Assembly: GCA_944349415.1 (NCBI GenBank)
Contig: CALVMX010000002.1
Coordinates: 946 to 64,945 of the forward strand
Source of the DNA: an uncultured Clostridia bacterium
GTDB taxonomy: Bacteria; Bacillota; Clostridia; Christensenellales; UBA1242
DNA length: 64,000 nt
Direction: 5' to 3'
Shown here: positions 1 to 16,902 of the stretch, one piece after another
Layout: the number at the start of each line of letters is the position of its first letter
How positions within the stretch are numbered: the first letter of the stretch is position 1
Position numbers and translations under genes: made by a program
Notes under the pieces: generated by a model
What the model was told of the DNA's origin: nothing
What the model saw: only the letters and a program-made list of their open reading frames with translations
Database searches by the model: none

Positions 1-1320
1 TATGACATAACAGCACAAGTTGTTGGCTTTGACGGAACTTTTGAAGTTGGAACCGTGGAAGTTAAAGTGGCAACTCCAAGCGACATTACAACATATAGTG
101 CAACCAACTTACCTTCAAGTTATTTGAACACCACCACAACAAACATTGCCGAAGATTTGCTTGCTCAAAACATTGCTTTACAAGTTACATACGGTGATGG
201 TCAAGATATTACTTTAACAAATTATGAAGTAGATATTGACGCTGAGGACGCGCAAGAAGATACACAATTTATCATCTTGACAAACGGTCTCACAACTCAA
301 ACTTCTGGAAATTTAGAAATTAAATCATATAGAATCGATGCTCAAGTTGTCGGCGTGACAGGAATTTTGGAAAATATCGGAAGCATTGAGGTTACTCTTG
401 CTCCAAGAACCAGCATCACAAATGTTTCTGCTGAAAATTTAGATTTGAGTTATCTTAACACAGACAACAAAAACTTGACAGACATTGCACTTAAAGTTAC
501 TTTTGATAATCATGAAGTTGTGACTTTAACTAATTATGAATTAGACGTAAATGTCGACGAAGTTCAAGAAGAAACTGAATTTGTTATCTCAACAAGCGGA
601 TTTTCTACTCAAACTGATGGAAATTTAGAAATTAGAGAATATTCTCTATCCGCACAAGTTGTCGGCTTTGAGGGAAGTTATAATATTGGAACAATTGAGG
701 TTACTCTTGCTCCAAGAACAAGCATTTCTTCTTTCAAAGTTAATGGATTAACCTTGGCTTATGAGAATTTAGATACAGTTAATTTGAATGGAATCACTCT
801 TGAAGTTACTTATAATAATCATGAAAGTGAAATTTTAACTTCTTATGTTATTGACGGAACTGCACAAACTGAAACAGAATTTATTCTCAACACTGACGGA
901 CTTTCTTCTGAAGAAGCTGGAAACTTGACCGTTAAAGATTATACAATAACAGCACAAGTGGTAGGCTATGAAGGTTCTTTAAATTTAGGAACAATTACTG
1001 TTACTCGTGCAGAAGCAACTTCTGTCGAAGAAGTAAAAATAAACAACTTGACCACTTCATACTTTGAAACTGACACAGTAAATTTGCAAGGCATCACAGT
1101 TGATGTTACATATGATAATCACTTGACCGAAACATTGACCGTATATGAAATCGATGTGGAAATAGAAAGCGTAAAGCCTGGAACTAAATTTGTCATTTAC
1201 ACAGACGGTTTATCAAGCGAAACTGCTGGAGATTTAACTTTGGGCACCTATGAAATCACTGTAAAAGTGGTTGGTTACGATGAAACTTTCAGCGTAGGAA
1301 CGGTTGAAGTTGAAAGCGAC
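1..1320 (+). repeat. In-frame tandem repeats of 300-327 nt (100-109 aa). At least 4.4 copies, continuing upstream of the window.
   Basis: Repeat-initial Tyr codons at nt 1, 328, 640, 940 and 1249. Each unit reads Y.I.AQVVG..G....G.(I/V)EV....(T/S)S(I/V)....NL...Y...D..NL.GI.L.VTY.NH....LT.YE.D, a pattern like bacterial Ig-like domains. Confidence 0.75.
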
Positions 1321-3261
1321 TGGAATCGTTACGATCTTACATTATTTGCTGACCCTCAATTTGTGACAGACTACAAGACTAGCATATCTGCACAAGGAAC
1401 TGAAGATTCTTTCTATTCAACATCTGAAAAATATACAGTTGGCGACGACAATGCCTTCGTATTCAAACCAGAAATTGAGTTATTCTTAAAAGATGCTATT
1501 GATGAAAGTGGTATTTATGTGCCAGAAACTTACAACACAACTGTAAAAGTTTATCTTCTAGCAGATGGTTCACAAACTTTACTTAATGATGACACTTATT
1601 ATACATACTCTGATTTTGAATTTGATTTCACAGAAGCCGCAATAGGTCACGAATTCAAAATTGAAGTTTTGCCTTCAGATTTTGACACAATGGATACTGG
1701 CGGTGTTGTAACTCCTGTAACTTTCGAATTTAAAGTGGAAGACGGCTGGAATGTGTATACAGCTTTGGATCTCGGAGTTATAAATATTGTTGAAGATACA
1801 TCCGCTTTAGATGGTTATGCTCGCGAAAAGTCTCAAAGAATTTTCTATAATCAAGGGACAGGCCTGTATGATAGAAAATATTATTCTGATATCTGGACAG
1901 AATTTTTAACAGAGAAAGGGTATACCAATTTAACGAAAGTAAACGCTATTTTCTTACATGGAAACATTGATGTTTCTCCTGAAGATTTGCCAGAGGAATA
2001 TTTTGTAAGTCAAGCAGAGGCTAATAAAGCTCTTGTGGGAGATTATCCAGTTGGCAGTTTGAGAGATTTCTCCATTCTTTATAATTATTATTTGACAAAT
2101 GATTTCACATTTAATGGAAACTATTTCACATTAAACTTTGGTGGAAGAGAAGCTACTGAAACAAGCCCAGCGGTTGATCCAATTCCTGTTGGCTTGTCCT
2201 TTTGTTCAGGAGCTGATGATGGTGGAAATCTAACCCTATATTCTGCAAATCAGTCTACTTATCGAGCAGGGCACTCAACTGTTTTTGGGTTTATGGGATT
2301 ATTAGATAATACTACAACCTATCGTGCTACATTTAAGAATGTCAATTTAATGGGAAACACTGGCGGTGTTATTTCTGGTGGTAGTGCATACGATCCAGAT
2401 GATCCAGATAGCATGACAGAAGAAACAAGAAAAGTTATGGAAGCTTCAGGTACACTAATCTTCCTTAAATCAATTCATGCAACCACTGATGTTGATAATG
2501 CTATTGCTAAAAACTTCTTAATTGCTTGGTATGGTGAAAGTAAAATTTCCGATACTCAAACAGGTGTAGGTAATTTCTACCTTAATCAAGTTAAAACTTA
2601 TGACTGCTTTAACAGTGCTATATTTGCTTATGCTTCCGACTGCAACAAAATTTCTAACTCTGAGTTTAAGAGATTTGGTGGGCCTGCTATCTTCTTGATA
2701 AGTGAAACAAATAATGATCAAGAGCAAACAGTTGACAGAGCAGCTGGAGTTGATGTAGATACTAACACAGTAATAGAAAACTATGTTGTGGGTGACGAGG
2801 CTTGGTTTATTATGCAACAAGCAACATTAATCGCTGCAGCATTTCCAGAAATGAATCGAGTTATGGAGGATAAATTTAAGAATTCAATTTTCTTTGACGT
2901 TTCAACTGAAGGTGGAAGTCAAAAAACAGCTATGAATCTTATATCTTTGTCAATGGACTCTGGATACTTATCATCTACTAAATACAAAATTTATTCAGAT
3001 TTTTCTATAGGAGAGAGTAGTTCAACAAATATTCCATTTAGCACATATAATCCTGCATTTGATAATTTTATAAATCAGAGAACAGCAATATATATGTCTA
3101 ACACTGGAAATACTGCAGTTTTAACTTCTACTGAGTATGATAGTATGACAATGGTAAACCCAATGGGAGGAAATCACTTCGAAGGTGACTATTTGTATTT
3201 GATGTTACCATTAGGTACAACCTATGCTGGTGTGGTATTGGAGTTAAAAGATTTAACATAA
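1..3261 (+). CDS. Large surface/secreted protein, 5'-truncated by the window edge. It has tandem Ig-like repeats followed by a non-repetitive C-terminal domain of about 650 aa.
   Basis: Frame 1 is open from base 1 (YDITAQVVGFDG...) and runs into tracked ORF 55..3261. The repeat signature Y-x-I-x-AQVVG...GTIEVTLAPRTSI recurs. Confidence 0.8.
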   Translation, partial: YDITAQVVGFDGTFEVGTVEVKVATPSDITTYSATNLPSSYLNTTTTNIAEDLLAQNIALQVTYGDGQDITLTNYEVDIDAEDAQEDTQFIILTNGLTTQTSGNLEIKSYRIDAQVVGVTGILENIGSIEVTLAPRTSITNVSAENLDLSYLNTDNKNLTDIALKVTFDNHEVVTLTNYELDVNVDEVQEETEFVISTSGFSTQTDGNLEIREYSLSAQVVGFEGSYNIGTIEVTLAPRTSISSFKVNGLTLAYENLDTVNLNGITLEVTYNNHESEILTSYVIDGTAQTETEFILNTDGLSSEEAGNLTVKDYTITAQVVGYEGSLNLGTITVTRAEATSVEEVKINNLTTSYFETDTVNLQGITVDVTYDNHLTETLTVYEIDVEIESVKPGTKFVIYTDGLSSETAGDLTLGTYEITVKVVGYDETFSVGTVEVESDWNRYDLTLFADPQFVTDYKTSISAQGTEDSFYSTSEKYTVGDDNAFVFKPEIELFLKDAIDESGIYVPETYNTTVKVYLLADGSQTLLNDDTYYTYSDFEFDFTEAAIGHEFKIEVLPSDFDTMDTGGVVTPVTFEFKVEDGWNVYTALDLGVINIVEDTSALDGYAREKSQRIFYNQGTGLYDRKYYSDIWTEFLTEKGYTNLTKVNAIFLHGNIDVSPEDLPEEYFVSQAEANKALVGDYPVGSLRDFSILYNYYLTNDFTFNGNYFTLNFGGREATETSPAVDPIPVGLSFCSGADDGGNLTLYSANQSTYRAGHSTVFGFMGLLDNTTTYRATFKNVNLMGNTGGVISGGSAYDPDDPDSMTEETRKVMEASGTLIFLKSIHATTDVDNAIAKNFLIAWYGESKISDTQTGVGNFYLNQVKTYDCFNSAIFAYASDCNKISNSEFKRFGGPAIFLISETNNDQEQTVDRAAGVDVDTNTVIENYVVGDEAWFIMQQATLIAAAFPEMNRVMEDKFKNSIFFDVSTEGGSQKTAMNLISLSMDSGYLSSTKYKIYSDFSIGESSSTNIPFSTYNPAFDNFINQRTAIYMSNTGNTAVLTSTEYDSMTMVNPMGGNHFEGDYLYLMLPLGTTYAGVVLELKDLT

Positions 3262-3276
3262 TCTTATAAAAGCTTA

Positions 3277-3302
3277 AAAGACTGATTTTTGTCAGTCTTT
3301 TT
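3277..3302 (+). terminator. Rho-independent terminator after the surface-protein gene
   Basis: AAAGACTGA (3277-3285), loop TTTTTG, TCAGTCTTT (3292-3300), followed by T residues. Confidence 0.7.
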
Positions 3303-3698
3303 CTATATATTAAATTTTGTAATAAAAAAGAGCACAAGAGTATGTGCTCTAGAGTGTTTTAAAGTGTACAAAAGGACATGTAATCGTTATGTATTTTTGC
3401 TTTTGGAGTGTTAAAGCAGAAAATACGAATAATGAAATTGGAACGAAAACACTCTTAAACATTCCATTCATTATATCAGTTTAAAAGAGTCATAACTTTT
3501 AAACTGACAATTTAATTATAGCATAAATTTTACAAAAAACCAAATAATTTTACAATATTTTTCAAAATATTTTTAAACTTTTCAATTTGAAAAAACTTTG
3601 CCATTTGCAAGCAAAGCTTTTTACACATTTTCAAACCGATTTTGTATCAAAGATTCACTATTCAAATTTGCCTATACGGCAAATAAGTTGTTATTAAA

Positions 3699-3883
3699 TA
3701 AAAAATACATCTAAAATAAAAAAATGCATCTAGAATAAAAAATACATCTAGAATAAAAAAATGCATCTAGAATAAAAAATACATCTAGAATAAAAAATAC
3801 ATCTAGAATAAAAAATACATCTAGAATAAAAAAATGCATCTAGAATAAAAAATACATCTAGAATAAAAAAATGCATCTAATAA
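3699..3883. repeat. Tandem array of about 10 copies of an 18/19-bp unit in two variants (AAAAAATACATCTAGAAT and AAAAAAATGCATCTAGAAT)
   Basis: Read directly. The variants occur in mixed order and the first and last units are degenerate. No spacers, so not CRISPR. The unit contains ACATCTAGA, identical to 3931-3939 in the adjacent tRNA remnant. Confidence 0.9.
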
Positions 3884-3904
3884 TATGTTTAATTAAAATT
3901 ATTT

Positions 3905-3948
3905 TGGTGTTCCCGCCCGGAATCGAACCCACATCTAGAGCTTAGGAG
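3905..3948 (-). pseudogene. tRNA 3'-half remnant (anticodon loop CTCCTAA, variable region, T arm, acceptor 3' strand, CCA). Proposed left junction of the island.
   Basis: The minus strand reads CTCCTAAGCTCTAGATGTGGGTTCGATTCCGGGCGGGAACACCA. It has a GTTCGATTC T-loop and ends in CCA. The acceptor 3' strand CGGGAAC pairs with GTTTCCG at 17062-17068. The T stem and anticodon stem are imperfect. Confidence 0.6.
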
Positions 3949-4132
3949 CAATAGAAAATCATTAAAATAACCTTTCTATCACTCATTTTATCAATTATCA
4001 TCAAAATTATAATCAATTTGACAGAAAATCTCAATCAAATTGACTATCTTTTCCAACTTTTAATCAAACCAACTCAAAATCACGGTGACGATTTGGTGCA
4101 CTTTTGCATAATTTCTCCATTTGGGTGCAGTT

Positions 4133-6370
4133 CTACTTTATAAGCCAATTATAAATGTTGTTTAAATATTTGAAATCTTCTTCAGAAACACTTCTATTAT
4201 GATCGATATTGTTTCTTATTCTATTAAGATTAACTAACCATTCTGTTTTATCTTTTTTTGAACGTCCTTTTGAATTTTGAACCGTGTATAATTTTTCAAA
4301 TATGTTTTGCCAATTATTTATAATAACATCTCTGTAATCAATAAGATGCATGCAATCCCATTCATCTATATCTATATCAGGGTCCTCACACTCTTTTTCA
4401 GTTTTTAAAATTCTTAATTTTTTTAATAATTCTTGGGGTATACCAACCTTTTTCCATTTAGTTGCTCCAAAATTAATAATTAATTCATTTTTTATATCAA
4501 TACTTAAGCGAGATTCGATATCACTTATTAAAGAAAATGCTTGAGTATTAAATTGTTTTGTATTATTTTTTTGCCACTCGTCATATCCATCAAAAATAAT
4601 ATTTGGGAATTTACTTAAAATAAAACCTTGTAATGTTCTCCAATACTTAATTCGGCCTCCGCCACCATAAGAAGTTTTTAAATCTTTCTTCTGCTCATCA
4701 TTCAAATCATTTACACCTTGAATTATTGCATCCAGATAAGGTTTAAAATCTTCAAAATGCTCATTAATTTTGTCTTGACTATATAGGTTAGTTGTTAATA
4801 AGACATTAGATATGTCAGAAATTATTCTTATAATTCCGTAAATTGAAATATTGTATACCCATTTGTTTTCATCTTCTGATTTATTCCAATTTTCAATGTC
4901 ACTTTGTTTAATATATTTAAAAGAACTAACTAATAAAGTAAATATATTGTCAAAGTTTTTATCATTATTATTTAAGTCACAAATACCAGAGCGCTCAATT
5001 TCTGTTCCTTTATATTTATTAAACAGACCAGATTTATCCAAAGCATCCCTAATTGTATCTAATGTAATACAACATTTATCTGTTTTATTATTTTCACCAA
5101 TAATAACTCTATCAAATAGAGGAGAGTCTGTATTTTCTCCCAACTCTTGGGCAATTCTTGAGAAAAGTGCTGTGTTTCTTTCGGTTGGATTTTCAGAATC
5201 CCATAACAAATCTGCATTTAATGTTGTTCTAAGGTTTTTTGATACCGATTTTTGATTTTCATTAATTTCCATAAACAATTTGATTTGATCGTTTTTTGCT
5301 AAATCTAAAAATGCAACAACAGGAATGGTGTTTGTTTCTTTATATTGAGTGTTTGCATAACCATAAAGACGATGTTGTCCATCAATAATATAAACAGACT
5401 TATATCTTTGAGGGAGTTTTAACAAACCTATTTTTGAGATCGAAGCTTCGTCTTGTAAACTAGATAACGAGAATGTTAACCCTTTTTTATTTGTATCAAT
5501 ACTTATAATAACAGAGTTTGGAAAGAATCCTCCATTATTAATAAAAGTTTCTATTTGTTTTAATCTTGATTTTTTAATAAGTCTTTGATATGTAGGCATA
5601 TCATTTCTGTTTGCATCCGTCCTATGAAGTATGTATCCTATTTTTAATAGCTTTTCTGGTTCTATAGAAAAAGAATAATATGTCAGTCCTCCCATTTTGC
5701 CTTGTATGGCAGGTATTACTTCATCCAAGTTTGCAATCTTTTGTCCTGAAAACAGATTACCTAATAATTGATACTTTGATGCATTTCCGAGATGCTTGTT
5801 TAAATTAATATAATATTCTAATCTATCATCATCGATATAGAAATATTTCTGTCCCTCAATAAGCGCAACGTCACTTTTTGAAATGGCATAGTTTTTTGTG
5901 CAAAGGATAACCTTAAATTTTTTGTCGCCAGTAAATATTTTTTTAAGTTCTTTTAATAATTCACCATAATTTGTTTTAATATTTCCTAAAACGTTTTCAA
6001 AAGAACTTAATTCTTTTTTGGCATCAGAATATAAGTAATAGCAAATTAAAACACATTCATTATTTTCAGCAATAAAACCAAAATCTGATATATCTTTTGT
6101 TTCATCGTTAAAAGAGTGTGGTAAATTTGGAATAACATTGAAACCCATTTCACAAAACAATTGAATAAACGAATAATAACCGAGTTCTATTTCTGGTTTT
6201 AGTTTTTTCACGATTGCTTTTGATTTTTGTTTCGAAGATACAATAAATCCTTGTGATTCGAAATTAGAAATTTCTTCTTTTAGAATTGTTTTGCGAACAA
6301 ACTTTTGTTTTACAATTGTCAATAATTTCTTCTGATCTGTATTTAAGTCTAGGGCTTGTTTAATTATCAC
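4133..6370 (-). CDS. DGQHR-domain (DndB-like, ParB/Srx fold) protein with a C-terminal HEPN (Rx4H) domain and an unassigned N-terminal domain of about 200 aa
   Basis: GTG start 8 nt after AAGGAG. Motifs FPNSVIISI, IIDGQHRLYG and QIKLFMEINENQKSV are present. The C-terminal RNNIDH is encoded at nt 4199-4216. There is an 11-nt overlap with the upstream methylase ORF. Confidence 0.75.
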   Translation of the reverse strand: MIIKQALDLNTDQKKLLTIVKQKFVRKTILKEEISNFESQGFIVSSKQKSKAIVKKLKPEIELGYYSFIQLFCEMGFNVIPNLPHSFNDETKDISDFGFIAENNECVLICYYLYSDAKKELSSFENVLGNIKTNYGELLKELKKIFTGDKKFKVILCTKNYAISKSDVALIEGQKYFYIDDDRLEYYINLNKHLGNASKYQLLGNLFSGQKIANLDEVIPAIQGKMGGLTYYSFSIEPEKLLKIGYILHRTDANRNDMPTYQRLIKKSRLKQIETFINNGGFFPNSVIISIDTNKKGLTFSLSSLQDEASISKIGLLKLPQRYKSVYIIDGQHRLYGYANTQYKETNTIPVVAFLDLAKNDQIKLFMEINENQKSVSKNLRTTLNADLLWDSENPTERNTALFSRIAQELGENTDSPLFDRVIIGENNKTDKCCITLDTIRDALDKSGLFNKYKGTEIERSGICDLNNNDKNFDNIFTLLVSSFKYIKQSDIENWNKSEDENKWVYNISIYGIIRIISDISNVLLTTNLYSQDKINEHFEDFKPYLDAIIQGVNDLNDEQKKDLKTSYGGGGRIKYWRTLQGFILSKFPNIIFDGYDEWQKNNTKQFNTQAFSLISDIESRLSIDIKNELIINFGATKWKKVGIPQELLKKLRILKTEKECEDPDIDIDEWDCMHLIDYRDVIINNWQNIFEKLYTVQNSKGRSKKDKTEWLVNLNRIRNNIDHNRSVSEEDFKYLNNIYNWLIK

Positions 6371-7184
6371 TAGAATTTCTCCTTTTAATATTTGTAAATA
6401 AATATTCTTCTATTTGTCCTCGCTTTGCATTTCTTCCACCTATAGTGCTAGAGCGATTAAGAACATATTTGTAATCACCTTTCTCAAAAATTTCATCAAT
6501 TTTTTTGTGGGCAGCATTTGTTAATATATAATAAGCTTTTTTTTCTTTTATCTTATCTATAAAATCACTCAATCTTATTTGATCTTCTAATGAAAATAAG
6601 TTTTTATTATATTCTATAAACCCATTATTATTGTGAGAAACAGTATAAGGTGGGTCTAAAAATATTAGGTCTCCTTCTTGGATTTGATCTATAAAGCATG
6701 TAAAGTCACCTGAAGATAGAACTGAGTTTTGTAACGTTTCAGAACATATATTAAGTGATTGCTCATCGATTGTGTAGTTCTTTTTATACCCAAAAGGAAC
6801 GTTATATTCGCCTTTACTATTAACCCTATAAATGCCATTATAGGAGGTGTGATTTAGATAAATGAATTGAGCAGCTTGCTTACTTAAACTTCTAAATCGT
6901 TTTTTTCTGATATCATAATAAAAATCTTTTTCATTTGGAAATTGTCTTAAATATTTAATAACAGAGCCCTTATTTTCTTTAACTTGTTTATAGGTTAAGA
7001 TTAACTCATTATTCATATCATTAAGATAACATTTATTAAAAGAAGCTTCAATATTAAAAAATATTGCAGCACTACCAAGAAAAGGCTCATAATAATTATT
7101 AAATTCGTAGCCTCTTATCAAATCATTTACTTCGTTAATTAACCAGCGTTTACCACCAGCCCATCTTAAAAAGGGTGTAATCAT
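6360..7184 (-). CDS. Dam-like (D12 class) N6-adenine DNA methyltransferase
   Basis: Motifs RWAGGKRWL, EPFLGSAAIF (AdoMet-binding region) and FLDPPY (catalytic DPPY) are present. The TAA stop lies inside the start region of the downstream DGQHR ORF. Confidence 0.8.
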   Translation of the reverse strand: MITPFLRWAGGKRWLINEVNDLIRGYEFNNYYEPFLGSAAIFFNIEASFNKCYLNDMNNELILTYKQVKENKGSVIKYLRQFPNEKDFYYDIRKKRFRSLSKQAAQFIYLNHTSYNGIYRVNSKGEYNVPFGYKKNYTIDEQSLNICSETLQNSVLSSGDFTCFIDQIQEGDLIFLDPPYTVSHNNNGFIEYNKNLFSLEDQIRLSDFIDKIKEKKAYYILTNAAHKKIDEIFEKGDYKYVLNRSSTIGGRNAKRGQIEEYLFTNIKRRNSSDN

Positions 7185-7272
7185 AAAATTCTCCTAAAAA
7201 AATTATAGCACAAAAATACAATTTTTGCACTATAATCGCAAATTATTATAAAATTTTTATAAATTCAACACT

Positions 7273-7509
7273 TTATTTGAGTAATTCCTTACAAACTTTG
7301 TAGGTAATCTCAATTACATGATCAATTTCAAGGTTGTGAAGTTGACCTTTTTCTATGTCTAAATTAAAGTATTCCTTCCATTTTTCTTTTGAAAAGCCTT
7401 TAACAAAAGTGTCTTCTAGTTCACAAATTTTGTTTAATTGTAATTGCATTTCAGCAGACATCTTCTCACTTTCTAGAATATCTCTGACTAGCTGTAAAAC
7501 GTGGTTCAA
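7273..7509 (-). CDS. Small hypothetical protein (78 aa), paralogue of the 7836..8069 product
   Basis: TTG start 6 nt after GGAGGTG. The C-terminus LHNLEIDHVIEITYKVCKELLK aligns with LHKLDIEEHIVHTYKICKDMFK of the other small ORF. Confidence 0.5.
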   Translation of the reverse strand: MNHVLQLVRDILESEKMSAEMQLQLNKICELEDTFVKGFSKEKWKEYFNLDIEKGQLHNLEIDHVIEITYKVCKELLK

Positions 7510-7831
7510 CTTTCACACCTCCATTAGATTTTATAGAACAATACTTGGGATAATTTTCTCCATCGCTATATACCAATACCATTACATCACATTGAATACA
7601 GCAATACATAAGAACATGAAAAATACCATTTTCATCGATAAACATATCTTCTTGATACTTGGCAATATTGGGTTCATCTTCTAACAATCTTTCACGAAAA
7701 GGTATAAACTCTCGTCTTGAAAGATAAACAACCCGCTCAACCACATATTCAGCTTCAAAGCCCTCATACTTATCAATTCTATTTCTAAGCAACCTAGCAT
7801 TAGAAACATTACATATAAATCGTGTCTTCAT
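7466..7831 (-). CDS. Hypothetical protein (121 aa), Cys-containing, with the look of a mobile-element protein
   Basis: ORF located between the two paralogous small ORFs. Its 3' end overlaps the next ORF by 44 nt. No family could be assigned by eye. Confidence 0.5.
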   Translation of the reverse strand: MKTRFICNVSNARLLRNRIDKYEGFEAEYVVERVVYLSRREFIPFRERLLEDEPNIAKYQEDMFIDENGIFHVLMYCCIQCDVMVLVYSDGENYPKYCSIKSNGGVKVEPRFTASQRYSRK

Positions 7832-7835
7832 ATCA

Positions 7836-8069
7836 TTACCTCAACTTAAACATATCTTTGCAGATTTTGTAGGTGTGTACAATATGTTCTTCAATATCAA
7901 GTTTGTGAAGTTTGTTGATATGGTTAATCAAATTTTCAAATATAGCCTTTTGGCTTGGTATAAAAGTTGAAATCAAATCTTCTTTTATGTGTTGAATATC
8001 AACTGAGTTCTCAAAGTATTCATGTGAATTCATAAAACTTAAATCCACAAGTTCAACATTTTTTTTCAT
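7836..8069 (-). CDS. Small hypothetical protein (77 aa), paralogue of the 7273..7509 product
   Basis: An ATG at 8069 preceded by AAGGAGGTG is preferred over the tracked GTG at 8075. Confidence 0.5.
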   Translation of the reverse strand: MKKNVELVDLSFMNSHEYFENSVDIQHIKEDLISTFIPSQKAIFENLINHINKLHKLDIEEHIVHTYKICKDMFKLR

Positions 8070-8145
8070 AAACACCTCCTTATAGGTGTTTGTCTTTTAC
8101 CGTACTTTCAATTATTTTGCAAGTCTTTAGAAAAAAATTATAAAA

Positions 8146-8165
8146 TTTATAGGAATTCCTATAAA
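8146..8165. promoter_or_regulatory. Perfect 20-bp palindrome TTTATAGGAATTCCTATAAA in the divergent promoter region. Candidate operator for the HTH domain of the m5C MTase.
   Basis: Read directly. It lies about 28 bp upstream of an extended -10 element (TGT TATAAT, 8190-8198) that precedes the MTase gene. Confidence 0.5.
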
Positions 8166-8222
8166 AATGATACAACTTATCATAAAGTGTGTTATAATGT
8201 ATCTGAGGAGAAAAAAAACAAT

Positions 8223-9350
8223 ATGGACTTAGCAGCTCTATTACAAAAAACAATTATTGATTACAATCTAAACCAAACTATGTTTGCAAAAAGCATCAAT
8301 TCTACCCAAGCACAAGTTAGCGACTGGTTGGCAAATAAAAGTAAACCAAGCTATGAGAATTTAAGAAATATTGCAAAAGTTTATAATATTGATGCAAATC
8401 TTTTATTGGATGTTGATCGTCAAGATTATAAATTTATAGATTTATTTGCTGGTATTGGCGGTATTAGACGACCTTTTGACAACTTAGGATGTAAATGTGT
8501 ATTCTCATCGGAAATTGATAAGCATGCAATAAGCACTTATTATGCAAACTTTAATGAAACCCCAAGTGGCGATATTACTCAAATAAGTGAAAAAGATATT
8601 CCAAACTTTGATATTTTATTGGCAGGATTCCCATGCCAAGCGTTTTCTATAGCTGGAAAAAGACAAGGGTTTCAAGATACTAGAGGCACAATGTTCTTTG
8701 AAATACAGAGGATTTTAGAGTATCATAAGCCTAGATGTTTTATGCTAGAAAATGTTAAAGGCTTAATGAATCATGATAAAGGAAAGACATTTAAAACTAT
8801 TCTAGATATATTAGAAAATGAGTTAAATTATAAAGTTTATTATAAAGTGTTAAATGCAAAGAATTTTGGCATGCCTCAAAATAGAGAAAGAATTATAATT
8901 GTAGGATTTCTTGATCATTCTATTGAATTCAAATTCCCTGAGCCTACTGGTATTAAAACACGCCTAGGCGATATATTAGAAAGCAATGTTGATGATAAAT
9001 ATACTATTTCTGATAAAATCTGGGCTAGTCATCAAAGAAGAAAAGAGGAAAATAAAAAGAAAGGAAATGGATTTGGTTATTCATTATTTGATGAAAATTC
9101 GGAATATACAAGTACAATATCTGCCAGATATTATAAAGATGGTTCAGAAATTTTAGTTAAACAAGAAAATAAAAATCCAAGAAAATTAACACCACGAGAG
9201 GCTGCTAGATTACAAGGATTTCCAGATGACTTTAAGTTGGTATGTAGCGATATGCAATGCTACAAGCAATTTGGTAATTCTGTTCCTACAAAAATGATAG
9301 AAGCTGTTGCAATAAATATAGTAAAATCACTAAAAGGAGAAAATTATTAA
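8223..9350 (+). CDS. DNA (cytosine-5) methyltransferase with an N-terminal XRE-type HTH domain
   Basis: Motifs DLFAGIGG (I), GFPCQAFS (IV), ENVKGL (VI), QNRERIIIVG (VIII) and GNSVP (X). The N-terminus reads LNQTMFAKSINSTQAQVSDWLANKSKPSYENLRNIAKVYNI, an HTH. The start was moved to the ATG at 8223, which follows GAGGAG. Confidence 0.9.
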   Translation: MDLAALLQKTIIDYNLNQTMFAKSINSTQAQVSDWLANKSKPSYENLRNIAKVYNIDANLLLDVDRQDYKFIDLFAGIGGIRRPFDNLGCKCVFSSEIDKHAISTYYANFNETPSGDITQISEKDIPNFDILLAGFPCQAFSIAGKRQGFQDTRGTMFFEIQRILEYHKPRCFMLENVKGLMNHDKGKTFKTILDILENELNYKVYYKVLNAKNFGMPQNRERIIIVGFLDHSIEFKFPEPTGIKTRLGDILESNVDDKYTISDKIWASHQRRKEENKKKGNGFGYSLFDENSEYTSTISARYYKDGSEILVKQENKNPRKLTPREAARLQGFPDDFKLVCSDMQCYKQFGNSVPTKMIEAVAINIVKSLKGENY

Positions 9351-10390
9351 TGAAACAAGTGAAAAAGATAAACATTCAATCTACAGAATATAACAATAAT
9401 TTAGATTTTTATACGATGTTGAAGTTGCTTATACAATGCCAACTAAATGATAGACAACTAATCAATATACAAAATGTACTTATATCAAACTCCGAAAAAA
9501 TAGCAAACGACACATCATTAGTAAAGACTCTGATTTTGGATAATACTTCTATTGTACGATCAAATACAGGAAAATACGAATCATTAAATTATTTTCTTAA
9601 TACAATTGAATCTATTAATTCTAAAATGTGGTGTGCATTTTTAGATTTAGCAATTGACCTTTTAATGGTCAAAGACCTAATATTGCAAGAATCAAAAGTT
9701 TATGCCGCAAATGAATACAAAAAAGAATTGAGAGAAATTAGCGACCAATTAAGCGTTGAATATGATATGTCTGGATTACATTTGCCTTATGGTCAAAGGG
9801 TTATTAGCTCACTTCTCCTTTTTGCATTTTCTGATATTACTAGAAAATCTGATTTTATTTTGTCTAATAGCGATCAGATTGTTAAAAACTTTTCAACTAA
9901 AATTAAAAAGCTAACAAAAATTTACAAATTAAATGTAAATAATATGTTTCATATCTTAATGGACGAATCAATGAATCAAAGTATTAAATCTGATGCTGGT
10001 TCAAGTTATGAAAGCAGGGTTTCTCAAATGTTATCGCCAATTGTGGAGAAGTTAAATGGTCATTCTCATGACTCAAAAATACCTTCTGTAGAATACGATA
10101 ACACATTTATTCTTAACAATAAACCATGTGGAGTAAGTGCTAAAAGAACCTTAAGAGAAAGATATAAACAAAACTTGGAAGATGTAGAAAAATTAGATGT
10201 TGATTATATGTTTGTTATAACTTTAGGTATTGATCTTAACGAAGATAAGTTGAATAATATTTTACAGAAAAATGGCATTTATGTCGTTGTTAGCCAAGAA
10301 GAATATAATGCTAGGTCGTTCTTTAATCAAAATTCCAAAGTTATTTCTTCTGCTGATCTTGAACAATCATTGAAAAGGATTGTTTTATAA
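9350..10390 (+). CDS. Putative type II restriction endonuclease, cognate to the m5C MTase
   Basis: The start overlaps the MTase stop (TAATG), so the two are translationally coupled. The C-terminal half has weak PD-(D/E)XK-like spacing (SYESRV...VEYD...VSAKR). The family was not recognised by eye. Confidence 0.5.
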   Translation: MKQVKKINIQSTEYNNNLDFYTMLKLLIQCQLNDRQLINIQNVLISNSEKIANDTSLVKTLILDNTSIVRSNTGKYESLNYFLNTIESINSKMWCAFLDLAIDLLMVKDLILQESKVYAANEYKKELREISDQLSVEYDMSGLHLPYGQRVISSLLLFAFSDITRKSDFILSNSDQIVKNFSTKIKKLTKIYKLNVNNMFHILMDESMNQSIKSDAGSSYESRVSQMLSPIVEKLNGHSHDSKIPSVEYDNTFILNNKPCGVSAKRTLRERYKQNLEDVEKLDVDYMFVITLGIDLNEDKLNNILQKNGIYVVVSQEEYNARSFFNQNSKVISSADLEQSLKRIVL

Positions 10391-10395
10391 TCTTT

Positions 10396-10728
10396 ATGAA
10401 AGCATTAATTATTAAAAAACCGTGGATTGATTATATATTAAATGGAAGTAAAGTTTGGGAAATTCGTGGAAGCAAAACCAACATTAGAGGACAAATAGAA
10501 CTTATACAAAGTGGTAGCGGTTTAGTTGTAGGTTCTTGCGAGATTATAGATTGCAAAGAATTAACATTAGAAGATTACAAAAACAATATTGATAAACACA
10601 CCATTCAAGATATTGATTCTCTTCCCTACAAAAAGACTTATGCTTGGATTCTCACAAATGCTAAAAGATATGAAACATCTAGACGATATAAGCATCCTAA
10701 TGGTGTTATAATTTGGGTAAATTTATAA
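10396..10728 (+). CDS. ASCH (PUA-like fold) domain protein
   Basis: The N-terminus ALIIKKPWIDYILNGSKVWEIRGSKTNIRGQIELIQSG matches the ASCH consensus (IKQPWA..I..G.K..E.R). It starts 5 nt after the REase stop. Confidence 0.6.
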   Translation: MKALIIKKPWIDYILNGSKVWEIRGSKTNIRGQIELIQSGSGLVVGSCEIIDCKELTLEDYKNNIDKHTIQDIDSLPYKKTYAWILTNAKRYETSRRYKHPNGVIIWVNL

Positions 10729-12565: not shown

Positions 12566-12921
12566 TACCCCCTAGGGGCGGTCAAATCTCTAAGCAAAAC
12601 TCTTTTATGAGCGGGGCGGCAATCTCACACAAAAATTCGCAAAATCAAAAATCTAATAAAAAATCAAAAAAAATGAAAAGAAAATGGCTCAAAAGAGTCT
12701 AAAAATATGGGATTTATAATGATTTTGATTTTGTGAAAAATAATTAAAATAAATCAAATGTGAATCAAAAATATTCAAAATATTTGATAGTCGGCAATTT
12801 TATGTTTTGGAAAGCTGTTAAAAACGATTGTCGCCAACTTTATTTCAAAATGGATAAATTATCCAAGAAGGATTGTTTCAAGCGATTTGAAAGGGTTTTT
12901 GCAAGGAATTTGAGCATTCAA

Positions 12922-13000
12922 ACAAGATTACAAAGATACAAAGTTACAAAGATACAAGAAAACAAGATTACAAAATTTCAAGGATACAAAGATACAAGGA
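12922..13000. repeat. Two direct repeats of about 40 bp built from GATACAA(A/G)/GATTACAAA sub-repeats, upstream of xis/int
   Basis: ACAAGATTACAAAGATACAAAGTTACAAAGATACAAGAAA is followed by ACAAGATTACAAAATTTCAAGGATACAAAGATACAAGGAT. Confidence 0.8.
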
Positions 13001-13111
13001 TTTTATTTTAATTTATTTTGCTGTTTCACTGGACTTGTAAAGTTCTTTGCGGTACTTTTTGTTTCGCATAGAACCTCTAATCTAGTGAGCATCAGCACAC
13101 GGAGAGGTATC

Positions 13112-13344: not shown

Positions 13345-14736
13345 ATGGCATGTATACAGAAAAAGAAATTATTAGATGGAACAATATCTTATAGAGTTCA
13401 AGTAAAAGCAAAGAACCTAAGAACTGGAAAGTTCGAAGCTAAAGCAATAACCTGGAAGAAACCACTAGAGCTAACTGAAACACAAGCAAAGAAAGGGCTT
13501 CAAAGAATTGCACTAGAACTAGAAGAAAAATTTAACAAACAACTAAATGGACTACTAGCAGTAGACAATGATATAACCTTTATAGATTATGCTGAAAGAT
13601 GGCTAGAAAAAATTAAGAACACTCGTTCCCTTAACTACTATGTTAAGGGGCGAGATTGCTTGAAAAAATTCTATAAATATTTCGGCAATATAAAACTTAA
13701 CCAAATAACACCAGTAATGGTGCAAGGTTTCCTAGATGATATGATGATGAAGAGATACGAAAAGAAAACTGCAAGGCTTACTGGCGACCTTAACCAATAC
13801 TTAAAATCTCATTGCATCAAGCAAGTAGATGCTCTAAAAAAGATTGGAATATCTAAATCAATACTAGCATCAGCAAATGCAGGATACTGCATACGAATTG
13901 AAAATGCAGAAAAAATATGTAATGCACTAGGATTAAAATATGATGACTACTTTACAACAGAAATACAAAGCCACGCTTATGCAAAAGAAACAATAATGAA
14001 ACTAAAACGAACACTAGCAACAATACTAGCCGATGCAAAGCGACAACGACTGGTTGAACACAACTTCGCATCTCGTGACTATATAGCACCAATACAAGGA
14101 TATAAAAAAGAAGTTAAAATACTAAACGATAAAGAAGCTAAGGTGTTAGCCAACTACTTACACACAGAACCAAACCCTAGATGGAAGATAGCATTACTCA
14201 CAGTACTATTTATGGGATTAAGACGTGGCGAACTTGCAGGACTAGAATGGAAAGATATTGACTACGAAAACAAGACAATGACCATAGCAAGGTCGGTTCA
14301 AGACATTATAGGCTTTGGACTTATAACCAAAGAGCCAAAAACTGAAAACTCCAAAAGAACAATATCAATGCCAGATAAACTAATTGAATACTTAAAGGAA
14401 TATGAAACTTGGTGGCTAAACCAAAAGAAATATCTTGGAGATAGACTTGGAAATACCGATAGATTATTCTGCACAGAAGATGGCACAGATATATCCCCTG
14501 GGTTATTCAGAGTGTGGCTACAAAAGACACTGGCAAAAGTTGACTTGCCAAAAGTAACTCTTCACTCCCTAAGACACACAAACATAACCTTACAATTGGT
14601 AGCAGGAGTAGATATGAAAACAGTATCTGCCCGTGCAGGACACTCAAAAGCCAGTACAACTTCAGACTTCTACAGCCACTTTATAAAGAACTCGGATATA
14701 CACGCGAGCGAGATTATAAATAAAATTTTTGATTAA
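13345..14736 (+). CDS. int: Tyrosine site-specific recombinase (integrase)
   Basis: Catalytic regions GLRRGELAGLEWKDI, HSLRHT and ARAGHSKASTTSDFYSH. The N-terminus is arm-binding-like (ISYRVQVKAKN). An HTH-like insert reads GISKSILASANAGYCIRIENAEKICNALGL. RBS AAGGAG. Confidence 0.9.
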   Translation: MACIQKKKLLDGTISYRVQVKAKNLRTGKFEAKAITWKKPLELTETQAKKGLQRIALELEEKFNKQLNGLLAVDNDITFIDYAERWLEKIKNTRSLNYYVKGRDCLKKFYKYFGNIKLNQITPVMVQGFLDDMMMKRYEKKTARLTGDLNQYLKSHCIKQVDALKKIGISKSILASANAGYCIRIENAEKICNALGLKYDDYFTTEIQSHAYAKETIMKLKRTLATILADAKRQRLVEHNFASRDYIAPIQGYKKEVKILNDKEAKVLANYLHTEPNPRWKIALLTVLFMGLRRGELAGLEWKDIDYENKTMTIARSVQDIIGFGLITKEPKTENSKRTISMPDKLIEYLKEYETWWLNQKKYLGDRLGNTDRLFCTEDGTDISPGLFRVWLQKTLAKVDLPKVTLHSLRHTNITLQLVAGVDMKTVSARAGHSKASTTSDFYSHFIKNSDIHASEIINKIFD

Positions 14737-14791: not shown

Positions 14792-14820
14792 TTGACATGT
14801 GCTTTTGAAAATGATAATAT
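14792..14820 (+). promoter_or_regulatory. Sigma-70-type promoter for the ATPase gene
   Basis: TTGACA (14792-14797), 17-nt spacer, TAATAT (14815-14820). Confidence 0.6.
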
Positions 14821-14840
14821 TTAGGCGTGGAGGTAAGAAA

Positions 14841-16235
14841 ATGATAGTAAATTATTCTTTTAAGAACTTTAGAAGTTATTATGATATGCAAGAATTTAGC
14901 ATGGCGGCAAAATCTTACAATGACAATGAACAAAATTTACAAGAGATAGACGACTCTATTGCTACTAAAAGCAATAAATTATTAAAATCAGCTATATTGC
15001 TTGGATGTAATGGCGCTGGAAAATCTAACTTTGTCGCTTCTTTAGGATATCTTACATATTTAATAAAGCAATCTTATGTTAATTTCCAAAACAACAAGCA
15101 GACTTCATTTTTTGCATCAGAGAAATTTAAATTTATTGATGAGGCTAAAAACGAACCAACTTGCTTTAGCCTTGAGTTTATAGCAAATGACAATAGCAAT
15201 TATTCTTATGAGCTTGAACTTGATGTGGACAAAGATATTCCTTTTGTAAGAAAAGAAACCTTATCAAAAAGATTAAATAACGGTAAAAATAGATTAGCTT
15301 TTTCACAGTATATCTTTCACCGCAATTTTGATGAAATTGTTGAGGGAGATAATTCTATTATGAATTTGTTTAATTTCATAAAGCCACAAAAAGAATTTTT
15401 ACTGATCTCTTATCTTTTTACTTCAAACCTAAATGATACTATATTAGATCTTATTAATCCTGTAAAGAATTGGTTCAATAATTTATGCATTATTGAAGCA
15501 GATACCGAGATTATGATTGATTTAAATCTAATTACTGAAAAAGATCTAGATTTTGTTACTAAGATAATAAGTGCATATACTAGACCTCTTTCAAGAATTG
15601 TAAAGAGTAGTAATCAATTAGATATCATGCCGGAAGAACTACGAACTCCACAAGTTGCAATTAACACATTGAATAAAAAATATCCTAATGGGTTGCCTGG
15701 CGTAATTACTATTTTGCAAAATGGGGTATTTGCTCAAGATTTAATTGGAATTTTTAACATCTTTAATAGTGACGGAAAACAAACAGGTGATTTTAAATAC
15801 TCAATATTTGATACTAGTTCAAGAATATTATCCAAAGGTGAAAAGAAAATTATATTTTTAATGCTTTATATCAAACAAGCTTTAGATAAGGGTTCAGTTA
15901 TATTGGTTGATGAAATGGAAACATCTTTACACAAAAATGTATGTGAGTTAATTATTGATATGTTTAATGATAATGATGTTAACAAAAATAAAGCTCAAGC
16001 AATTTTTACAACTCAAAACATAAATATGATTGATTATAAATTTAGAAAAGATCAAGTTTTCTTAATAAGAAAGGATCAAATGTGGGGAAAATCCAATATT
16101 TCTTCACTAGCCCAAATTAGTAAAACCGAAAAAGTCATAAGAAAAGATGTAAAGCTTTCCAAAATATTTGAAAAAGAAATAGAAGGGACAACCTCCCCAA
16201 TTAACTTAAATCTTATAAAAACTATTCTGAATTAG
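14841..16235 (+). CDS. ABC-type AAA_15/AAA_21-family ATPase with no recognisable nuclease domain
   Basis: N-terminus IVNYSFKNFRSY. Walker A GCNGAGKS. Signature-like LSKGEKK. Walker B ILVDEMETSLH. ATG at 14841 after GGAGG. Confidence 0.8.
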   Translation: MIVNYSFKNFRSYYDMQEFSMAAKSYNDNEQNLQEIDDSIATKSNKLLKSAILLGCNGAGKSNFVASLGYLTYLIKQSYVNFQNNKQTSFFASEKFKFIDEAKNEPTCFSLEFIANDNSNYSYELELDVDKDIPFVRKETLSKRLNNGKNRLAFSQYIFHRNFDEIVEGDNSIMNLFNFIKPQKEFLLISYLFTSNLNDTILDLINPVKNWFNNLCIIEADTEIMIDLNLITEKDLDFVTKIISAYTRPLSRIVKSSNQLDIMPEELRTPQVAINTLNKKYPNGLPGVITILQNGVFAQDLIGIFNIFNSDGKQTGDFKYSIFDTSSRILSKGEKKIIFLMLYIKQALDKGSVILVDEMETSLHKNVCELIIDMFNDNDVNKNKAQAIFTTQNINMIDYKFRKDQVFLIRKDQMWGKSNISSLAQISKTEKVIRKDVKLSKIFEKEIEGTTSPINLNLIKTILN

Positions 16236-16476
16236 ATATAATCAAATTAGTTGACGGTTTGTTTATATAATAAAAAACTTTTGCTCGTTCTATGCAAAGA
16301 AAGGAGGTGAAAAAAATAATAGAACAAAAAAAGCCTTTAGAAGTACCAGTTCCAAAGGCAACAAGATAAAAGACGGAGTCCAGTATCTACGCTGATATTA
16401 TTTTATCAAATTTTATCAATTAAGTCAACAGCTGTGCTCCTATTTTATCATAAAATCTTAATAGGAGGAAGATAAT

Positions 16477-16782
16477 ATGACAGATTTTTATATTAAAGCT
16501 GTTCACTATTCAACCAACTATAAAGGAAATCAGGTTATATTTTCAGCAAAAGTATGTCCTAATAACGGGGGATATTTTGGAGCTGAAAGAATTTGGTCTA
16601 GAATGGAAATAATAAATGCAATCGAAAACCAAAGAAAAAACTTTAAGACGGTATATAAGAGAAATGGAACTTATTATATTGGCTATGATGTCCTTGTAAT
16701 TGAAGTTGATGGAGAAAAGTATATTAGAACAGATAATAATAGAAGAACTATTGATAATCTTGGTGAAATTGAAGAGTTCTAA
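16477..16782 (+). CDS. DUF3892-like small protein (101 aa)
   Basis: The pattern I.AV.Y.......I....V......W.....I..I......F.T........V.V..V.G..YIRT..N....DNLG.I is recalled as the DUF3892 signature. RBS AGGAGG. Confidence 0.6.
   Translation: MTDFYIKAVHYSTNYKGNQVIFSAKVCPNNGGYFGAERIWSRMEIINAIENQRKNFKTVYKRNGTYYIGYDVLVIEVDGEKYIRTDNNRRTIDNLGEIEEF

Positions 16783-16825: not shown

Positions 16826-16902
<77 letters not shown>

Follow-up and report, generated by a model that had tools for sequence, protein, structure and literature searches.

DpnM is the GATC methylase of the DpnII system, and in DpnII/MboI-type Type II restriction-modification (R-M) systems a methylase of the DpnM/Dam family is compactly coupled to a nuclease-fold partner. 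The gene pair examined in the present study combines a methylase of the same family with a partner that is not a DpnII-family restriction endonuclease (REase), but a 745-amino acid (aa) fusion of an REase fold, a DGQHR domain and a predicted HEPN domain. It is located on the minus strand at positions 4133 to 7184 of a 64,000-nucleotide (nt) stretch of contig CALVMX010000002.1 from an uncultured Clostridia bacterium, hereafter the window, and comprises the following features.

6360..7184, minus strand: Dam/DpnM-like D12-class N6-adenine DNA methyltransferase gene, 274 aa, ATG start
4133..6370, minus strand: gene for the three-domain protein (REase fold, DGQHR, HEPN), 745 aa, GTG start
7191..7212, minus strand: promoter-like extended -10 and ribosome-binding site, directly 5' of the methylase ATG
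5726..6370, minus strand: residues 1-215, N-terminal PD-(D/E)xK (NERD/Hjc/NucS-like) fold with all catalytic residues replaced
4706..5725, minus strand: residues 216-555, DGQHR (DndB/DpdB-like, ParB/Srx-fold) domain
4133..4585, minus strand: residues ~596-745, C-terminal all-helical Swt1/AbiF-like predicted HEPN domain with RNNIDH

Other described systems resemble this arrangement in part. DndB and DpdB carry the same DGQHR ParB-like domain and each is partnered with a DNA-modifying enzyme (PMC4507180; PMC10853773); DndB represses and limits phosphorothioation, and DpdB is the ATPase partner of the DNA transglycosylase DpdA. DndB has been described computationally as ParB plus HEPN (PMC3632139), and DndB-like proteins bind ATP and GTP (bioRxiv 10.1101/2025.10.10.680097). 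The window protein differs from both in being twice the size and in having an added REase-fold domain, a motif-bearing HEPN domain and an N6-methyladenine (m6A) methylase as partner. GmrSD, SspE and BrxU are products of defence-island genes in which a ParB-fold nucleoside triphosphatase (NTPase) sensor is fused to one or more nuclease domains. The DGQQR motif of such enzymes is related to DGQHR (PMC4619093), and DUF262 ParB-like domains are the NTPase sensors that activate the fused nucleases in SspE and GmrSD (reviewed in PMC12065111). These enzymes are modification-dependent, use a DUF1524 HNH nuclease and have no cognate methylase, whereas the window family has PD-(D/E)xK and HEPN domains and an obligatorily linked methylase. 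In PrrC/EcoprrI, other R-M-linked HEPN RNases and AbiF/AbiD, an Rx4H HEPN domain is genetically tied to DNA methylation, as at the window pair, which differs in having no non-coding RNA (ncRNA) or Type I R-M partner. HEPN domains function as dimers, in which the Rx4-6H site is composite (PMC3710099).

Conservation of the methylase-DGQHR gene pair

The methylase matched Pfam MethyltransfD12 (PF02086, 7.6e-46), TIGR00571 (dam; 5.3e-65, score 219.7 against a cutoff of 114.85) and PADLOC MTase_II (9e-89), and includes a DPPY motif as part of the intact S-adenosylmethionine (SAM)-binding and catalytic motifs of a Type II R-M methylase. The nearest solved structure is DpnM (2dpm, 5.7e-49), with E. 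coli Dam second (2e-29), and this resemblance makes GATC the most likely target. The methylase stop codon (TAA, 6360-6362) is located within the 745-aa open reading frame (ORF), which starts at a GTG (6368-6370) with a GGAG ribosome-binding site 8 nt 5' of it. An earlier note on this DNA had described a 274-aa D12-class m6A methyltransferase with a DPPY motif, overlapping the 745-aa ORF by 11 nt, and the ORF, the motif, the profile matches and the codon positions bear out both statements.

Upstream of the methylase, an extended -10-like TGcTATAAT (7202-7210) and an AGGAG (7191-7195) were read by eye from the sequence, and it is from these that we infer a putative promoter. A consensus promoter scan did not list this -10 element and found a number of sites no higher than in shuffled sequence, and both promoter and terminator scans of the window, which is AT-rich DNA, were uninformative. 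A 44-nt stretch with 70% identity is common to two minus-strand promoter regions, at 7223-7266 (Dam) and 8115-8158 (an operon of three small ORFs, s79-s121-s78, described below), and may be an operator in common.

The 745-aa protein belongs to a family of full-length proteins of ~750-780 aa with constant architecture, represented by >3000 matches and, at 50% clustering, by 418 representatives with E<1e-30. Gene neighbourhoods were sampled at 80 genome loci from Bacillota, Bacteroidota, Actinomycetota, Pseudomonadota, Chloroflexota and other phyla. A relative of the window methylase adjoins the gene in 70 of the 80 loci, and a different D12-class methylase (349-480 aa) does so in five more. After leaving out four loci without upstream sequence, a D12-class methylase is adjacent in 75 of the 76 informative loci, from at least five phyla, the sole exception being an N-terminally truncated gene with a helicase in the methylase's place. 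In nearly all cases the methylase gene immediately precedes the large gene on the same strand, and the other flanking genes are variable. Of 64 loci in which the spacing was measured, 46 have overlapping stop and start codons and 15 more have a gap of ≤30 nt. The recurrence of the pair in different phyla and this overlap indicate that the adjacency is more than chance. Three other members of the window clade, on other contigs, are strict two-gene units beside Mrr-like, integrase, STAND-NTPase or toxin-antitoxin genes. A conserved pair with variable flanks is the signature of a self-contained, horizontally mobile module. The earlier note had named conservation of the neighbourhood as a check on the pairing; the pair proves to be conserved and translationally coupled, so an absence of co-occurrence can no longer be held against it.

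The only recurrent neighbours across the 80 loci were D12 methylases, DpnII/DpnA-like genes, DrmA, DrmB and a NERD helicase; dnd, ssp and dpd genes are not among them. PADLOC v2 has no model dedicated to the family, and no PADLOC REase_II model matches any member. Viral contigs rarely carry the family (two loci in IMG/VR), and a phage origin was rejected on the basis of these two loci and of three weak, partial matches to the DGQHR core only in phage records. A plasmid search returned partial or distant matches only, with no full-length pair.

The reading we prefer, to which we assign a probability of about 50%, is that the pair is a methylation-gated, self-contained and horizontally mobile two-gene defence module with R-M logic. 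Consistent with this, the integrase-bearing island of the window also carries a C5-methylase R-M pair and an AbiLi-like ATPase. The same linkage data bear on whether the large protein could instead be a Type IV-like, modification-dependent enzyme of the GmrSD/SspE kind, attacking foreign modified DNA beside a functionally unrelated Dam. The combination of a ParB-like NTPase with a nuclease is common to GmrSD, SspE and BrxU (PMC4619093; PMC12065111), but a near-universal, overlapping, same-strand D12 methylase is not expected of such an enzyme, and the 745-aa protein has no Pfam match to DUF262 or DUF1524, which places it outside the GmrSD/SspE/BrxU group; we regard this explanation as very improbable. 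Being compact, coupled and island-borne, and having the same genetic logic as Type II R-M systems, the pair might also be a selfish addiction cassette, stabilising the island via post-segregational killing upon methylation dilution with little anti-phage role. Such a function is not exclusive of defence, and the co-location of family members with Mrr, DISARM, AbiL and STAND genes argues for defence, which makes a purely selfish cassette a decidedly doubtful account.

Domain architecture of the 745-aa protein

The AlphaFold2 (AF2) model of the whole 745-aa protein has a mean predicted local distance difference test (pLDDT) score of 86.9. The N-terminal ~200 aa, which the earlier note had left unassigned, can be assigned to a catalytically degenerate PD-(D/E)xK fold based on a consensus alignment of relatives, Foldseek and the relatives' Pfam matches. 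The family consensus, FED...IDVFAADDETILIIECK, reads as a textbook PD-(D/E)xK nuclease signature, versus GYY...FGFIAENNECVLICYYL in the window. Here the E-D of helix alpha-1 is replaced by Y65-Y66, and the D, E and K of the catalytic site by G98, Y111 and L113, respectively (G98-L113 codons, nt 6032-6079); all catalytic positions are also replaced in the close relatives of the window protein. Foldseek top matches of the N-domain in the AF2 model were EndoMS/NucS (5gke, probability 0.98), Cdn1 (0.99), AF1548 (0.95), FokI and Hjc, with weak E-values (0.03-2, from a multidomain query), and all best Protein Data Bank (PDB) matches were REase-fold proteins. The whole-protein search yielded weak N-domain matches only, and none for the DGQHR or HEPN parts. 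In some of the relatives the N-domain is matched by Pfam NERD (2.3e-6), Hjc or Card1_endonuc, in agreement with an alpha-beta-beta-beta-alpha-beta core.

All three domains of the 745-aa protein are under purifying selection in the window clade. The ratio of non-synonymous to synonymous substitution rates (dN/dS) of the N-domain is 0.13-0.19 within this clade, despite the replaced catalytic residues, and the domain is therefore considered functional but not catalytic. In the family at large, it could be a restriction nuclease. The earlier note's statement that there is no PD-(D/E)XK partner thus applies to the active site, which is dead in the window but intact in more than half of the relatives, and not to the fold, which the N-domain retains. 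With a dead REase site, classical site-specific cleavage is unlikely in the window, and with neither an intact catalytic site in the cognate endonuclease nor an REase_II model match, the window pair falls outside the classical Type II R-M systems.

The DGQHR motif is at residues 330-334 (nt 5369-5383) and is intact in 76 of 77 aligned sequences, comprising the window protein and 76 genome-locus members. The surrounding domain has the lowest dN/dS of the domains (0.03-0.12, window clade) and matched TIGR03187 (DGQHR) over residues 221-519 (1.3e-46, score 159.6 against a cutoff of 58.85) and Pfam DndB (3.7e-15, score 56.3 against 29.1); a PADLOC DpdB match (2.7e-22) covers the DGQHR core only. 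The motifs FPNSVIISI, IIDGQHRLYG and QIKLFMEINENQKSV, quoted in the earlier note in support of a DGQHR/DndB-type ParB-fold domain, were all found, and that assignment stands. Membership of the known DGQHR systems is a different matter. The score against NCBIfam DpdB (NF041060) is 72.5 bits versus a cutoff of 300, below equivalog level, and that against DGQHR_dnd_1 (TIGR04172) is 89.8 versus 450. Together with the lack of dnd linkage in the 80 loci, these scores agree with the earlier view that the protein is not the DndB regulator of a dnd cluster.

The C-terminal motif RNNIDH is located at residues 719-724 (nt 4199-4216) and conforms to Rx4-6H. All of 104 close relatives share R719, N720 and H724, and the Rx4-6H motif is intact in 59 of the 77 aligned sequences. 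A separate AF2 model of residues 556-745 is all-helical with a pLDDT of 92.6, and the Swt1 C-terminal domain (4pqz) ranks tenth among its Foldseek matches. HEPN_Swt1 matches 13 of 32 relatives at E<=0.01 (best 3e-6). Based on the motif and the model, the HEPN assignment is likely rather than proven, and RNase activity is predicted for the domain. Identity to the closest relative (L001) is 97-100% up to about residue 600 and then 50-80% over the HEPN domain (nt 4133-4570), where dS jumps from 0.03-0.11 to 0.59, indicating that the HEPN domain was therefore exchanged by recombination. The window version is nearest that of P0015. Swapping of HEPN segments is a diversification pattern typical of defence genes.

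HEPN is the sole intact nuclease motif left in the window clade, and the REase site has also been lost independently in several other clades. The output of the window clade is accordingly most likely, judging from these motifs, to be the HEPN domain rather than DNA cleavage. In the mechanism that we propose for the module, the DpnM/Dam-like methylase would mark host DNA, most likely at GATC, and the translationally coupled 745-aa partner would act as effector and sensor, with the ParB-like, NTP-binding DGQHR domain as its invariant core. From what is known of the family, this domain is expected to bind and hydrolyse NTP and thereby to act as a switch. Relatives with both nuclease sites intact would cleave unmethylated DNA, and possibly RNA as well. 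In the window clade, the dead REase fold would serve only as a DNA-binding or reader module: unmethylated (foreign) DNA would lead to NTP-dependent engagement of the DGQHR domains, bringing two HEPN domains together, and the activated HEPN domains would cleave RNA, resulting in growth arrest or abortive infection and not in classical restriction. The defence phenotype, the sensing of unmethylated DNA, the NTP switching and the RNase output are features we infer from the comparative analysis.

Nuclease-site variants and operon contexts

Active sites were tallied for 75 members of the family.

REase site intact, HEPN Rx4H intact: 34 members
REase site intact, HEPN Rx4H lost: 9 members
REase site lost, HEPN Rx4H intact: 24 members, including the window clade
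REase site lost, HEPN Rx4H lost: 8 members

The REase site is intact in 43 of the 75 members. All 67 stand-alone or DpnII-linked members retain at least one nuclease site, and the eight double-dead members are exactly the DISARM-linked loci described below. The latter group in a single clade (69-98% identity), the HEPN motif having already been lost in its closest relatives, and therefore represent one evolutionary event, not eight. Loss of the REase site occurred in at least five separate clusters and loss of HEPN in at least three. In our reading, the DGQHR core and the link to the methylase are indispensable in the family; the stand-alone pair retains at least one nuclease output, and both are dispensable where other effectors are supplied. 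The earlier note had likened the layout to an R-M module with the restriction component replaced by a ParB-HEPN protein. The module is indeed conserved and coupled, and HEPN is the only nuclease motif intact here; "replaced" goes too far, as the REase fold is retained and its site is intact in most relatives.

The variant series is also relevant to a non-defence role, in which the large protein would be a DndB- or DpdB-like cofactor or regulator whose DGQHR core loads or restrains Dam or controls its transcription, the nuclease motifs being dispensable remnants. DGQHR is the sole invariant motif, each nuclease motif has decayed more than once, with one clade lacking the two, and previously described DGQHR proteins have DNA-modifying enzymes as partners (PMC4507180; PMC10853773). 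Against this, the nuclease motifs are retained in most lineages, at least one of them in every stand-alone pair, and purifying selection acts on the dead N-domain as well as on the HEPN domain. In addition, location in defence islands and horizontal mobility are atypical of a housekeeping regulator, and a 745-aa three-domain protein is far larger than DndB. On balance we find a purely regulatory role quite unlikely.

Two operon contexts place the pair beside other restriction components. Five Bacteroidota loci carry the gene inside a true DpnII cassette, in the order Dam, DpnII endonuclease (PF04556, 4.5e-95), DGQHR protein and N6_N4 (DpnA-like) methylase. These loci tie the family to GATC methylation and show that it coexists with a classical REase. 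In a clade of relatives comprising eight loci, Dam-DGQHR is immediately preceded by DrmA (PADLOC 2e-136), DrmB (4e-45) and a NERD helicase (1e-44).

L051, L069, L071, L072, L075: DpnII-cassette loci, both nuclease motifs of the inserted protein intact
L023, L027, L032, L035, L038, L039, L045, L047: DISARM-like operon loci, positions ~180-10250

The DrmA-DrmB-NERD helicase-Dam-DGQHR operon may be an undescribed DISARM variant, which suggests that the Dam-DGQHR pair is able to provide a DISARM-like system with its methylase/sensor arm. To our knowledge, the described DISARM classes use DrmMI or DrmMII methylases and include no DGQHR protein, and our literature search found no paper linking DISARM with a DGQHR protein. 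The window itself differs from these loci: the neighbours of its pair are small ORFs without family assignment and the C5 R-M pair, with no DrmA or DrmB, and it does not have the DISARM core.

These contexts lend some weight to a guard or second-line module comparable to PrrC-EcoprrI, in which the methylase, or fully methylated DNA, would keep the protein inactive until a phage interferes with methylation or restriction, for instance through SAM depletion or an anti-restriction protein; the HEPN RNase and/or the REase would then fire. Such a mode of action has been proposed for R-M-linked HEPN domains (PMC3710099); the gene occurs inside complete DpnII cassettes that have their own REase and is attached to DISARM-like operons, and it is translationally coupled to the methylase. 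However, about 60 of the 75 loci have no other restriction component to guard, the intact REase site in most members suggests direct attack on DNA, and the physical interaction between methylase and effector is conjecture, so that we consider guarding an unlikely primary role.

A more ambitious version of the defence reading, which we offer tentatively, is that Dam plus DGQHR forms a portable self/non-self sensor with interchangeable output. In the window, the dead REase would read unmethylated GATC and the NTP switch would activate the HEPN RNase, while in the double-dead clade the pair would be the methylation arm of the undescribed DISARM variant. If true, this represents a new wiring in which a ParB-like NTP switch connects methylation-based self-recognition to alternative effectors, whether DNase, RNase or DISARM helicase complex, and DGQHR/DndB-type domains would gain a role beyond phosphorothioation and deazaguanine systems. 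Should the pair be a defence system, it adds a widespread family (>3000 sequences from at least five phyla) beyond those in PADLOC v2. The natural series of variants with both nucleases, one or none is a ready-made dissection of which output matters, and modules of this kind affect the transformability and phage susceptibility of gut Clostridia and Bacteroidota.

A number of results weigh against methylation-gated defence by the pair as set out above. That no stand-alone member is double-dead is only a modest departure from chance, at which ~3 would be expected, and the lineages are not independent. Repeated loss of nuclease sites and the presence of a complete DpnII R-M system beside the gene in five loci also fit an accessory or regulatory role, and a homologue on pNL1 (Novosphingobium) has no adjacent methylase. 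The ParB-like domain of Osa is reportedly a DNase. The ParB-like domain of the window protein could likewise be a DNase in itself, which leaves the lack of DNA cleavage in the window clade as a supposition. The evidence for the C-terminal domain is mixed: RNNIDH is present at nt 4199-4216, as the earlier note had described for its Rx4H HEPN motif, but the Pfam HEPN_Swt1 profile match to the window protein (E = 0.006, 17.2 bits) is below the 27.5-bit gathering score. The top Foldseek match of the C-terminal model, to the HEPN protein PbAbiF (8vz6), is weak (E~1, probability 0.66), and PDB sequence searches with the 745-aa protein, the family profile and the C-terminal profile gave zero matches. 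The GATC specificity attributed to the methylase comes from family resemblance. Depletion of GATC was rejected as evidence of specificity: relative to a second-order Markov expectation, 4-bp palindromes are scarce in the whole window, with observed/expected ratios of 0.19 for GTAC, 0.29 for GGCC, 0.40 for CCGG and 0.45 for GATC, the other three being depleted more.

The long DGQHR protein on pNL1 (L081, 4896-11394) is located beside a radical-SAM protein, a GHKL-type ATPase and a short (335-366 aa) DGQHR paralogue, and at two other loci (L019 and L033) the D12 methylase gene has a radical-SAM gene ahead of it; these radical-SAM-linked DGQHR loci may represent a different DNA-modification system. 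Table 1 of PMC3710099 includes "Saro_3948", a fusion of ParB and Swt1-like HEPN, and the pNL1 homologue may or may not be this protein. A literature search found no experimental characterisation, solved structure or description of the Dam-coupled three-domain family, its REase domain or its DpnII and DISARM contexts. This supports the earlier note's impression that no system of such composition has been characterised experimentally, with the qualification that the ParB(DGQHR)-HEPN fusion as such had already been catalogued computationally.

The surrounding island

The earlier note had placed the pair in the cargo of a mobile island beside a second R-M system, and both an integrase-bearing island and an adjoining C5-methylase/REase pair were found. 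Besides the pair, the following features were recognised.

7273-7509: s78, small upstream ORF, no family assignment
7466-7831: s121, small upstream ORF, no family assignment
7836-8075: s79, small upstream ORF, no family assignment
8187-10728: second R-M-like set, with a helix-turn-helix (HTH)-fused C5 cytosine methylase (PF00145, 7.7e-107), a 346-aa putative REase and a 110-aa ASCH-domain protein
Xis-like HTH protein, island gene
13345-14736: integrase, island gene
14799-16782: AbiLi-like AAA ATPase (PADLOC 3e-53; Pfam AAA_21) and DUF3892 protein, between the integrase and tRNA-Arg

DNA-level homology with the relatives L001-L003 spans ~3900-7832. The small ORFs s121 and s78 accompany the pair in L002 and L003, and s121 is also found in L005. 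All three small ORFs were rejected as components of the system on account of their absence upstream of the three other window-clade members. Within the second R-M-like set, the 346-aa protein has a weak EcoRII-C/REase_II match; the stop of the C5 methylase gene shares a single base (9350) with the start of the putative REase gene, and the ASCH gene starts 5 nt past the REase stop. The AbiLi-like ATPase may provide the island with a second abortive-infection gene as cargo.

Integration of the island seems to have taken place at tRNA-Arg(CCT), an intact copy of which is located at 16826-16902. At 3906-3945, ~190 nt past the stop of the 745-aa gene, lies the 3' half of a tRNA-Arg(CCT)-like sequence in minus-strand sense, from the anticodon loop to CCA, which differs from the intact copy. 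It follows an array of ~12 tandem copies of an 18/19-nt unit (ACATCTAGAATAAAAAATA / GCATCTAGAATAAAAAAAT) at 3660-3880, and CATCTAGA is common to the repeat unit and the tRNA-Arg fragment. The region 3660-3945 is probably the far attachment (att) site of a ~13-kb island, and the array is probably an island-boundary feature. An AbiF-style ncRNA antitoxin was considered for the array and rejected, as it is outside the segment common to the relatives and has no Rfam match. In the relative L003, a tRNA-Arg(CCT) is located ~2 kb upstream of its copy of the module. Finally, an 8-nt periodic repeat (TACAAAGA-like) at 12920-13006 is in, or overlaps, an 83-aa ORF just upstream of the Xis-like gene.

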